A stretch of 32,000 bases of DNA from Cylindrospermopsis raciborskii Cr2010. Lineage in GTDB: Bacteria > Cyanobacteriota > Cyanobacteriia > Cyanobacteriales > Nostocaceae. A program made the position numbers and the translations under genes. The stretch's first letter is position 1, and each line of letters opens with the position of its first letter. Below are positions 28,613-30,836 of this stretch, piece after piece. Below the pieces are notes generated by a model that saw only the letters and a list, made by a program, of their open reading frames with translations, had not been told where the DNA came from and ran no database searches. The stretch is from contig NZ_CP065936.1 in assembly GCF_003367075.2 (NCBI RefSeq), forward strand, positions 390,001-422,000. The letters run 5' to 3'.

Positions 28613-28618
28613 GTTAAA

Positions 28619-30169
28619 CTAAGCCAAAAGGTCACCCTCTTGACTCGTCTTCAGAACCGTGCATGAATTTTTCAATTCACACGGCTCCTCAATGGGGTGG
28701 GACTTGTCTTGTCTACCTAGCATACCGTCTTTAACAGCTTTTGCCTGGGGATGAATATTCTGTGTGCTTCCAGATCTTCTTAATTTCAAATCTTGGTGGA
28801 TATGTTGGTGCTTCATCAGTTCGTAGGTTTTACCCCCCGAGTTCTGGTGACAAAATCTCCAACTCTCTCCCATTGACCAGTATTTTTTACTAATCCATCT
28901 CTTACCTTTTTGGTTGTGTCGTCGTCGTGACCAAGCTCTTAATTTAGATTGTAACTCAAAATCTACCTTGCTAAAAATGCGATCGCTTATTAGGGGAGAG
29001 TAGTATTTTGTCCAGCTTTCAATTAAGGGATTCAGCTTACTAATCAGCACTGATTGTTTAGCGGATCGGTGCTGGTCAATAATTGCTCCCAGGGACTTAG
29101 TATGGTGTTCTAGGCTTTCTTTACTAATAGAAATCAAAGTGCTATAGCTGGTGTTATAATGGTTTGACCCTGAATCAGAGTTTTGGGATAATTTGTCATG
29201 GGTGACAAACTGTCTAATATAAAACCCCAAAAAGTTACAACCCACATTTCCCTGATAATCATAGAGACTGTGGGAGACCCTGCTTCCTCCCGCTTTCAGC
29301 TGTAAACCCACTTCTGATAGCCATTGGGTAATAATATTCTGACACAGAATAATCACTTCCAATTCCTGATGTACCAGCACGAATCTACCTTTGTGCTTAA
29401 CAAAGTGAGGAATTACATCACAGCCAAAACTAGTAGTATCAGCTATTAGACCAACCCAATTAATCCTCCGTTGCAATTCCCCTAAAGCTGCACCCAATAA
29501 AAGGGAACATAGGGAATGTGGGTGATTGAGAAAACCCAACTTCAACCATAATTTGATTTGTTTCCCCAGTAATGGAAAAGTATTAAGCTGCTTGAGGAAA
29601 TATTCAGGGTTAACCCCCTGGAAACTTTCTTCCAACTCACCAACTAAAACATACTTAGGTTTTTTTACCACTTCCCTGCGAATAGACCTAATAGCATCAT
29701 AACAAGAAATATCAGAATTAGCCTCGTGTAAACCCAAATTTAACTTTGCATCCCATTCTGGACTCATCGCCATACTAATAAGCAAAGTCAGAGCCTGGTT
29801 GTATATAGTAAACACAACCAAAGAAAGATTTTTCCTGACCAGTAGTGATTTGGCAATAACAGAGAGTTCCCTAGCCAAAACCAGTTTTTGTTCAGGAGAG
29901 AAAGATTTAGCACCCTGGTCCTGGGGAAATACCCCCTTCACCGCAATACATCTTGCTGACCAAGATTTAATTAACAGCTTCTGGAGCTTATGAACCGTTT
30001 TGACATCCCCACGCTGCGAGGCTTTGTATATTCTCTTTTGCAGCTTAAAAACATGACGTTCCAGTTTTTTCCAAGGAATTTCTTGCCAGTTTACATCTGA
30101 CTCAATTTCCCCAGGAACTGGTCCATTGTTTTTCCATTCCATCCGCAAGTTATTTTGGGCCTTGGACAT
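28619..30169 (-). CDS. Group II intron-encoded protein: degenerate RT domain, retained maturase (X) domain, no recognisable endonuclease domain
   Basis: 516 aa with an ATG start. The N-terminus WKKLERHVFKLQKRIYKASQRGDVKTVHKLQKLLIKSWSARC and the X-domain-like LISKLNPLIESWTKYYSPLISDRIFSKVDFELQSKLRAWSRRRH are typical of cyanobacterial group II IEPs. There is no YADD; the protein contains no Asp-Asp dipeptide anywhere. Confidence 0.85.
   Translation of the reverse strand: MSKAQNNLRMEWKNNGPVPGEIESDVNWQEIPWKKLERHVFKLQKRIYKASQRGDVKTVHKLQKLLIKSWSARCIAVKGVFPQDQGAKSFSPEQKLVLARELSVIAKSLLVRKNLSLVVFTIYNQALTLLISMAMSPEWDAKLNLGLHEANSDISCYDAIRSIRREVVKKPKYVLVGELEESFQGVNPEYFLKQLNTFPLLGKQIKLWLKLGFLNHPHSLCSLLLGAALGELQRRINWVGLIADTTSFGCDVIPHFVKHKGRFVLVHQELEVIILCQNIITQWLSEVGLQLKAGGSRVSHSLYDYQGNVGCNFLGFYIRQFVTHDKLSQNSDSGSNHYNTSYSTLISISKESLEHHTKSLGAIIDQHRSAKQSVLISKLNPLIESWTKYYSPLISDRIFSKVDFELQSKLRAWSRRRHNQKGKRWISKKYWSMGESWRFCHQNSGGKTYELMKHQHIHQDLKLRRSGSTQNIHPQAKAVKDGMLGRQDKSHPIEEPCELKNSCTVLKTSQEGDLLA
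28654..28687 (-). ncRNA. Group II intron domain V (catalytic hairpin)
   Basis: GAGCCGUGUGAAUUGAAAAAUUCAUGCACGGUUC. It has a 9-bp lower helix containing the AGC triad, a 5-bp upper helix, a GAAA tetraloop and a 2-nt 3'-side bulge (AU). The total is 34 nt. Confidence 0.9.
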
Positions 30170-30836
30170 TTTTACTGCTACTTAAAACCATACATTCCAA
30201 CCCATCGTGTCTACGTCAGCTTATCCTTTGGCTCTCCCAAAGGCCAATGCTTCTTAGACAATCCCTCCTACTATGTTGCTTGCGGTTAGCACCTACTCAA
30301 GTTTTCGACCTCAACTCAAGAGCTAACATAGAGGTTACTTCGTTCCTAATCTTCGTTTGGCGTTAGTTTTAGAACCTCTCTCTCCACCGGGTTACTTCCA
30401 GGGTGCAAGGTTGCAAATAATGAATTTTCCAACCCTTTTCACCATTCCCAATTTTAGGAAAAGCCTAATCCGCGTTGGCTTATTGGTCATTACGATGGTT
30501 CTGTCGAAAGTTTGACCCCTAGGTCTGTTCATGACTAACTGTGCTAGAAGGGATTCCCAGTCGGACTCTATAGGTTACCTCCGTTTATCCCCGCTTCATT
30601 AGTTTGATGGCTACTCTCTCCAATGGGGGATATGCTTTCACCCATGCACCTTAGGGGAAGGAATTACCTGATATTCAATAATGTTCAGGTTCACCTTCAC
30701 GAAGATTAAGTTATCTGGGTTTATTCCACCCAGTGACCTATCCCTCAATCTTATTATTGGTTATGCAAGCTATAGCTGTTTTACAACTATTATTTGCACT
30801 CATAATCAGAATTGATTTCAGATCAACGAATCGCAC

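Follow-up and report, generated by a model that had tools for sequence, protein, structure and literature searches.

The gene for NADPH-thioredoxin reductase C (NTRC) of the cyanobacterium Cylindrospermopsis raciborskii Cr2010 is split by a group II intron of 2,224 nt, which lies at 30836..28613 on the minus strand of the window, i.e., the whole stretch of 32,000 nucleotides that was analyzed (contig NZ_CP065936.1, positions 390,001 to 422,000). Our results showed that the locus has the anatomy and the exact splice junction of such an intron, that the protein encoded by the intron has lost its reverse transcriptase (RT) and endonuclease motifs, that the intron is fixed in the genus Cylindrospermopsis/Raphidiopsis, and that purifying selection acts on the ribozyme, the intron protein and the host exons. 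From this comparative evidence we infer that splicing takes place in vivo with the help of the protein, which it requires, and that the intron has become immobile. The explanation that we consider probable is that of an immobilised but functional intron, inherited vertically within the genus, whose protein has been kept as a maturase since NTRC needs splicing.

Anatomy of the split NTRC gene

The reading frame of NTRC exon 1 ends with ...GGT CAA CTA ATG A at 30837 and is followed immediately by GUGCGAUUCG (the gene and all parts of the intron are on the minus strand). The intron starts with GUGCGA from 30836 and ends with AAC at 28613, which fits the consensus GUGYG / AY. A covariance-model search matched Rfam RF00029 (domains V/VI) to 28689..28613 with 55.6 bits (gathering score 40, E=1.7e-8), and this match stops precisely at 28613, the proposed 3' boundary; the plastid domain V model RF04357 also scored above its gathering score, at 57.4 bits. 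An earlier reading made from the sequence alone (the sequence-only reading) had placed a group II intron at exactly these coordinates, and the covariance models bear out both its identity and its ends. On the whole intron, none of the Rfam D1-D4 models reached even E=1, and D5/D6 alone matched. The limits of the complete intron (28613..30836) come from the Rfam D5/D6 match together with the exon fusion described below, and the window contains one copy of it.

Joining 30837 to 28612 in silico gives an open frame of 1,389 nt (462 codons) that reads ...GGLPGGQLM| at the junction, where the predicted spliced RNA would read ...CUAAUGA|CAACCACG. When aligned with 10 intron-less NTRC orthologues, the junction motif was invariant, and the earlier claim of an in-frame fusion inside the most conserved N-terminal motif was thereby confirmed. 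The fused product aligned end to end with cyanobacterial NTRC-type reductases at 76-83% identity. Pfam recognized Pyr_redox_2 and Thioredoxin in it, corresponding to a thioredoxin reductase (TrxR) module with CAIC and a C-terminal thioredoxin domain with CGPC. The start that had been assumed needs correction: judged by sequence conservation, translation probably begins at ATG 30993 (MTKST...), giving a product of 456 aa, because the upstream ATG 31011 (the alternative exon 1 start, with 58 codons) is absent in R. brookii D9. Exon 1 accordingly spans 30837..30993 (52 codons and one base) and carries the FAD-binding GSGPAG Rossmann motif, and exon 2 spans 27399..28612 (two bases, 403 codons and the stop), encoding the rest of the TrxR module and the thioredoxin domain. 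The intron interrupts the coding frame, which supports the further claim that NTRC expression would depend on splicing.

The predicted ribozyme domains I-III (DI, DII and DIII) and the start of domain IV occupy 30170..30836. These 5' 667 nt were folded by RNAalifold into three multi-helix domains with the DI/DII/DIII layout and 7 compensatory pairs. Domain V (DV, 28654..28687) is the catalytic hairpin, with the AGC triad, a 2-nt bulge and a GAAA loop, and domain VI (DVI, 28616..28650) has a GUGA tetraloop and a bulged branch-point A at 28620, eight bases from the 3' end of the intron. The intron-encoded protein (516 aa, 28619..30169) has a degenerate fingers/palm region between RT0 (RVT_N) and the X domain. 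The UAG stop codon of its open reading frame (ORF; 28621-28619) includes the branch-point A28620 as its middle base, and the C-terminal tail of the protein is encoded by DV and DVI, a layout shared by P0005 and L009, two relatives whose protein is intact.

Exon recognition can be followed in the consensus fold. The first intron-binding site (IBS1, UAAUGA) is formed by the final six bases of exon 1 (30837..30842) and makes a 6-bp pairing with the first exon-binding site (EBS1, UCAUUA, 30418..30423) in the loop of a terminal domain I hairpin. The putative IBS2 (UGGUCA, 30845..30850), assigned by its complementarity, makes a 6-bp pairing throughout the genus with EBS2 (UGACCA, 30484..30489), which is unpaired in the DI d-arm of the fold. 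In Umezakia, where the exon reads CUCAUGA and EBS1 reads UCAUGAG, a C-G pair replaces the A-U pair seen here, so that a synonymous change in a Leu codon of the exon is met by the matching change in EBS1, i.e., a compensatory change in the EBS1-IBS1 pairing. The EBS2/IBS2 pairing has one mismatch in Umezakia.

All 180 of 180 pairs in DV and DVI (30 pairs in each of six distinct sequences) were standard pairs, with no disruptive change. Every one of the 15 DV pairs was kept in all sequences, with a compensatory change from U-A to C-G, and DVI showed a compensatory change from G-C to A-U. Within the genus, nucleotide divergence (K) was 0.007-0.021 in the ribozyme core and 0.11-0.23 in a peripheral domain I loop, and synonymous divergence (dS) was 0.11-0.25. 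The core has therefore changed about 10 times more slowly than synonymous sites, and the peripheral loop provides a neutral control inside the intron.

Drawing on established group II intron biology, we propose that an intron of the chloroplast-like (CL) lineage and IIB type would have homed into the GGQLM|TTTEVENF site of NTRC in the ancestor of Cylindrospermopsis/Raphidiopsis and would have been inherited vertically thereafter. Having lost RT catalysis and the DNA endonuclease, the element would no longer be able to move, and the ribozyme and RT0/X would have been kept by selection because NTRC can be made only if the intron is removed from its mRNA. The gene and the intron would be transcribed as one pre-mRNA, domain IV would be translated, and the protein would bind its own intron as a maturase. 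EBS1 and EBS2 in domain I would then hold IBS1 and IBS2 at the end of exon 1, the bulged A28620 of domain VI would attack the 5' splice site, and the lariat would be freed with ligation of the exons, yielding the 456-aa NTRC. The CL/IIB assignment is tentative and was made by nearest neighbors: the closest relatives are overwhelmingly cyanobacterial proteins with RT, X and HNH domains, the best domain V model is that of plastid ndhA/ndhB, and the nearest solved structure is from the IIB/CL intron T.el4h. If this scheme is correct, NTRC expression in the genus would carry an additional post-transcriptional step, and the host might have co-opted splicing to adjust how much NTRC is made, e.g., to temperature, Mg2+ or redox state.

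The intron protein and selection on the locus

The sequence-only reading had described the intron ORF as an RT gene, and this description did not hold. Pfam found RVT_N and GIIM alone in the 516-aa protein; the GIIM match (57.2 bits, E=1.7e-15) indicates the presence of domain X, and RVT_1 was not matched even at E<=10. Alignment with RT-competent relatives showed that motifs 1-4 have been deleted or replaced. An 8-residue deletion removes KKTAGVDG of motif 1, motif 2 has a 10-residue deletion with PLGIPT changed to SLVVFT, and FRPGRS has become EANSDIS. Furthermore, LDADI reads LVGEL, the motif 3 aspartate is gone, TPQGG..SPLL is missing, and YADD is replaced by KHKGRF with the loss of both of its aspartates. 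The DNA-binding and HNH endonuclease region, which is present in P0005 and L009 (HNH 46 bits), is deleted. The RT0 N-terminal region and domain X are well preserved. TIGR04416, an NCBI equivalog model whose cut-off for group II RT/maturases is 300 bits, mirrors these losses: the closest complete relative scored 323 bits (RVT_1 158 bits), the Umezakia protein 264 bits (RVT_1 117 bits) and the window protein 61 bits (no RVT_1). By its sequence, the intron ORF, in which RT motifs 1-5 are lost, is an RT-dead, endonuclease-less maturase remnant.

An AlphaFold model of the protein retained the maturase fold, with a predicted local distance difference test (pLDDT) score of 76.7 overall, at least 90 over residues 340-460 and below 50 past residue ~465. 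Its best structural matches were the T.el4h maturase chains 8FLI_B and 6ME0_C, with template modeling (TM) scores of 0.63-0.71. The protein is identical to C. raciborskii P0243, and an intact ORF of 516-527 aa was found in at least 13 named strains. In some strains the ORF stops earlier, at 488-501 aa, and the loss is confined to the low-confidence tail past the X domain.

Selection was estimated within the genus from the ratio of nonsynonymous to synonymous divergence (dN/dS), which was 0.34-0.38 for the intron protein (one-sided binomial p 1e-5 to 2e-8). By region it was 0.10-0.32 in RT0, 0.35-0.44 in the degenerate core (p<=0.003) and 0.26-0.40 in domain X. All 10 of the indels upstream of codon ~500 were multiples of three. 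NTRC exon 2 had a dN/dS of 0.12-0.16 and was free of stops and frameshifts in all strains, and residues 13-52 of exon 1 were identical in four strains despite 2-4 synonymous differences.

Several points weigh against the explanation of a functional intron with a retained maturase. The covariation comes from five or six distinct sequences, in which most pairs are invariant. The dN/dS of about 0.35 for the protein is looser than that of the host gene, and its constraint appears to be only moderate. The input alignment for AlphaFold consisted mostly of active RTs, which biases the model toward the RT fold. An exact look-up of six predicted spliced proteins in a collection of 15 billion proteins, which includes assemblies of sequencing runs, returned none of the six, although this result says little. 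Finally, the ORF of R. brookii D9 (L001, 4001-5600) is broken by three single-base indels; if these are real, NTRC in that strain is either spliced without the protein or lost. The D9 genome was determined by 454 pyrosequencing (PMC2821919), and the three indels, all of which fall in A-runs, may be sequencing errors or may reflect genuine decay of the maturase in D9, the strain with the smallest genome. The other indels in the D9 ORF are multiples of three.

Two alternatives draw on these points. One holds that the intron splices alone or with host factors and that the ORF does not serve as a maturase but is a relic in slow decay. The apparently complete ribozyme, the earlier ORF end in some strains, the possibly broken D9 ORF and a dN/dS that is not tight all speak for it. 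Nevertheless, dN/dS was significantly below 1 in every region of the protein, domain X and RT0 included, the indels are in frame without exception, full-length ORFs persist in many strains despite 16-25% synonymous divergence, and the early stops remove nothing but the tail past the X domain, so that we consider this alternative unlikely.

The other alternative is that the intron has inactivated NTRC, that no splicing occurs, and that the exons and the ORF are decaying relics. Such an outcome might be tolerated: although the redox gene, called a housekeeping gene by the sequence-only reading, is conserved, some cyanobacteria can do without NTRC, which is not known to be strictly essential in the group. 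A protein without catalytic motifs, the frameshifts of the D9 copy and the failure to find the spliced product in sequence collections could be read in the same way. A dead gene is very hard to reconcile, however, with an exon 2 that is lesion-free and under strong constraint in all strains, an exon 1 core that is identical despite synonymous changes, a ribozyme core that evolves so much more slowly than neutral sites, the maintenance of EBS1/IBS1 and of all DV/DVI pairs, and ORF indels that are all in frame; we regard it as most improbable.

The intron at the NTRC site in other genomes

The explanation of a functional, vertically inherited intron was also examined against its distribution. 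Every Cylindrospermopsis/Raphidiopsis sequence that we examined carried the intron at this one position of NTRC, with one copy per genome. The sequence-only reading had asked whether sister strains have the intron at this site; they do, and the one-off insertion that it implied is contradicted by this genus-wide fixation and by related copies in other lineages. Each of the copies L001-L007 and L009 described below has ATG A on its 5' side and Cx ACx ACx on its 3' side, so that the exons join as M|TTT. The RT is degenerate in R. brookii D9 (L001, with the interrupted ORF), C. curvispora (L002) and a Logan assembly (L003). Synonymous divergence was similar for the intron protein (dS 0.16-0.25) and the exon (dS 0.11-0.18), which, together with the single copy per genome, fits vertical inheritance since the ancestor of the genus. 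A scan of a genome collection with the intron protein returned R. brookii D9 alone, in a collection that holds one genome per species; the wider sampling consisted of exact-protein look-ups and one metagenome pattern scan.

Outside the genus, at least three further lineages of cyanobacteria have members of the intron family that home to the NTRC site. The copies in Umezakia ovalisporum (L004-6) retain RVT_1, with YADY in place of YADD, and have an HNH that is a frameshifted remnant. One of them (L004, 4001-5853) represents an intermediate stage of decay, with the HNH out of frame past a stop codon. Complete proteins of 621 aa with RT, X and HNH were found in an Aerosakkonema-like sequence (L007) and in a metagenome contig (L009). 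The NTRC of the Aerosakkonema-like sequence is 97% identical to that of an intron-less Aerosakkonema, and such presence in some genomes with absence from close relatives is the pattern that an active element should show. Among the Umezakia copy L004, the Aerosakkonema-like copy and the metagenome copy, the intron ORFs are more alike than the host exons. Nucleotide identity between the latter two was 87.6% for the intron and 75.1% for the host gene, and between Umezakia and the Aerosakkonema-like copy dS was 0.55 for the protein and saturated for the exon. These comparisons indicate that the family has moved horizontally, always to the NTRC site. In the metagenome scan with the DV-DVI sequence, six contigs were recovered, five of which carried the intron at the NTRC site and one of which was ectopic (L011). 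This ectopic member (JAESGF010000435.1, 211-4803) follows GGTGGTACAATGAAAAA, a sequence similar to the NTRC homing site, and its RT ORF is split at ~1562-3504 by an IS607-like insertion (serine recombinase and TnpB).

The complete RT and HNH proteins at the same site elsewhere, the introns that are closer to each other than their host genes are, and the ectopic copy could suggest that the intron of the genus is also still mobile, through residual RT activity or an RT borrowed from another genomic intron. Yet in the genus the YADD and motif 3 aspartates, motifs 1-2 and the whole DNA-binding/endonuclease region are gone, each genome has one copy that is always at the NTRC site, and the dS of the protein tracks that of the host gene. 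We consider continued mobility in the genus extremely improbable.

Taken together with the immobilised intron of the genus, the copies at this one site may tentatively be ordered into stages, from a fully mobile element with RT, X and HNH, through one with a mutated RT active site and a frameshifted HNH, to one that encodes a maturase only. It is likewise possible, although here too we would rate the odds as somewhat short of even, that the genus-wide, vertically inherited and immobile intron with its dedicated maturase is a bacterial counterpart of chloroplast trnK-matK, of which relatives preserve the earlier stages.

The split gene is reflected in public records in the way that the sequence-only reading predicted. 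Among the 120 best homologues, every NTRC match of the genus in the protein collection was an N-terminally truncated call of 381-384 aa, named 'thioredoxin', 'thioredoxin reductase' or 'FAD-dependent oxidoreductase', including those of strains C04 and S07, R. curvata NIES-932 and C. curvispora GIHE-G1. None of these 120 was a full-length NTRC attributed to the genus, and nothing pointed to a second, intact copy, the presence of which would have suggested a decaying pseudogene. Full-length NTRC proteins of 450-463 aa occur in Anabaena, Nostoc and others, and in Sphaerospermopsis, which we take to be the intron-less sister genus. Contigs of sister strains carry a fragment of 56-62 aa, a protein with RVT_N and GIIM and a 384-aa remainder of the reductase, in the same order and with conserved synteny, and the intron ORF is labelled 'reverse transcriptase N-terminal domain-containing protein' publicly. 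A 389-aa NTRC call (P0315) was considered as a further intron case and rejected, its end being set by a contig edge. Owing to this systematic mis-annotation, comparative and proteomic studies would score the gene of this genus as truncated.

Known introns and the surrounding locus

Most group II introns of bacteria are selfish retroelements that do not last long and lie outside important genes. In Trichodesmium, CL-type introns occur in the conserved genes dnaN and RIR, whose expression depends on splicing; such introns in conserved genes either encode an intact RT/maturase or lack an ORF and are helped in trans. A 2015 review notes cyanobacterial CL and mitochondria-like (ML) introns as the exception to a general avoidance of housekeeping genes (PMC4424553). 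The unusual site stressed by the sequence-only reading is thus inside a conserved gene, as claimed, but is less surprising than it appeared, CL-type introns of cyanobacteria being known from such places (PMC4424553). According to the same review, degenerate intron-encoded proteins that retain domain X (MatK, nad1I4, psbCI4) are typical of organelles, and maturase-only, splicing-only introns are viewed as an organelle speciality with a single bacterial example, O.i.I2, the sole bacterial case known at that time (PMC4424553).

In the trnK/MatK system, as in our reading of the NTRC intron, an immobile intron lies in a conserved gene, and the protein that it encodes is without the upstream RT motifs and the endonuclease but retains domain X; MatK is maintained as a splicing factor, the role that the window protein would have here (PMC4424553). 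The two differ in that MatK belongs to a IIA intron of an organelle, has wholly lost motifs 0-4 and serves several client introns, whereas the window protein is associated with a IIB/CL-like RNA in a free-living bacterium, has a well-kept RT0 and has one known client intron. O.i.I2 of Oceanobacillus iheyensis is also a bacterial intron in a protein gene (radC), with an intron-encoded protein that lacks YADD and further motifs but has no stop codons. It is, however, an intron of the ML class (IIA) from a Firmicute and from one genome, unlike the probably CL-type, cyanobacterial and genus-fixed intron described here, for which intermediate and intact relatives are available and selection has been measured. 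The maturase of T.el4h/TeI4 of Thermosynechococcus (PDB 6ME0, 8FLI), from a cyanobacterial IIB/CL intron, is the closest solved maturase both in sequence (E=3.8e-19) and in fold, but that element is mobile and multi-copy with an active RT, and its protein shares 22-23% identity with the window protein.

We found no description in the literature of a resident, RT-dead maturase under selection in other introns of cyanobacterial conserved genes, or of an intron in the NTRC or thioredoxin reductase gene of Cylindrospermopsis, and the D9/CS-505 genome paper makes no mention of an intron, thioredoxin or reverse transcriptase (PMC2821919). The case belongs to a known kind that is rare in bacteria; what it adds is its fixation across a genus, the measurable selection, and the occurrence of intact, intermediate and degenerate relatives at one homing site. 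If the proposed stages are correct, they would represent, in free-living bacteria, a natural progression from retroelement to splicing-only intron, a shift thought to precede organellar and spliceosomal introns. The host is a globally invasive, toxin-producing bloom cyanobacterium and NTRC is a conserved redox regulator, and the locus offers a tractable and experimentally accessible system for the study of how a retroelement becomes a domesticated intron.

In the surroundings of the split gene, a type IV pilin-like gene (N_methyl/Pilin_GH) lies at 31226-31750 on the plus strand and a gene for a permease of the ATP-binding cassette (ABC) type (BPD_transp_1) at 26049-26930 on the minus strand. 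The order of these neighbors matches that in C. curvispora and in a second strain, so that the locus is syntenic and no mobile island. Scans for promoters and terminators around the locus gave matches at chance level only.

Finally, the 3' end of NTRC is covered by a tandem duplication of ~350 bp (26982-27311 and 27297-27666, 92-98% identity), which comprises the C-terminal part of the thioredoxin domain and downstream sequence. The stretch is single-copy in 7 other Cylindrospermopsis/Raphidiopsis loci, and the duplication is therefore strain-specific. The downstream duplicate gives rise to a 74-aa ORF (27074-27298, minus strand) with the active site CGLC instead of CGPC. An NTRC-like protein of 607 aa in ENA (P0132), ~150 aa over the normal length and with additional thioredoxin-family Pfam matches, may have arisen when a duplicated thioredoxin module like that of the window was fused or read through.

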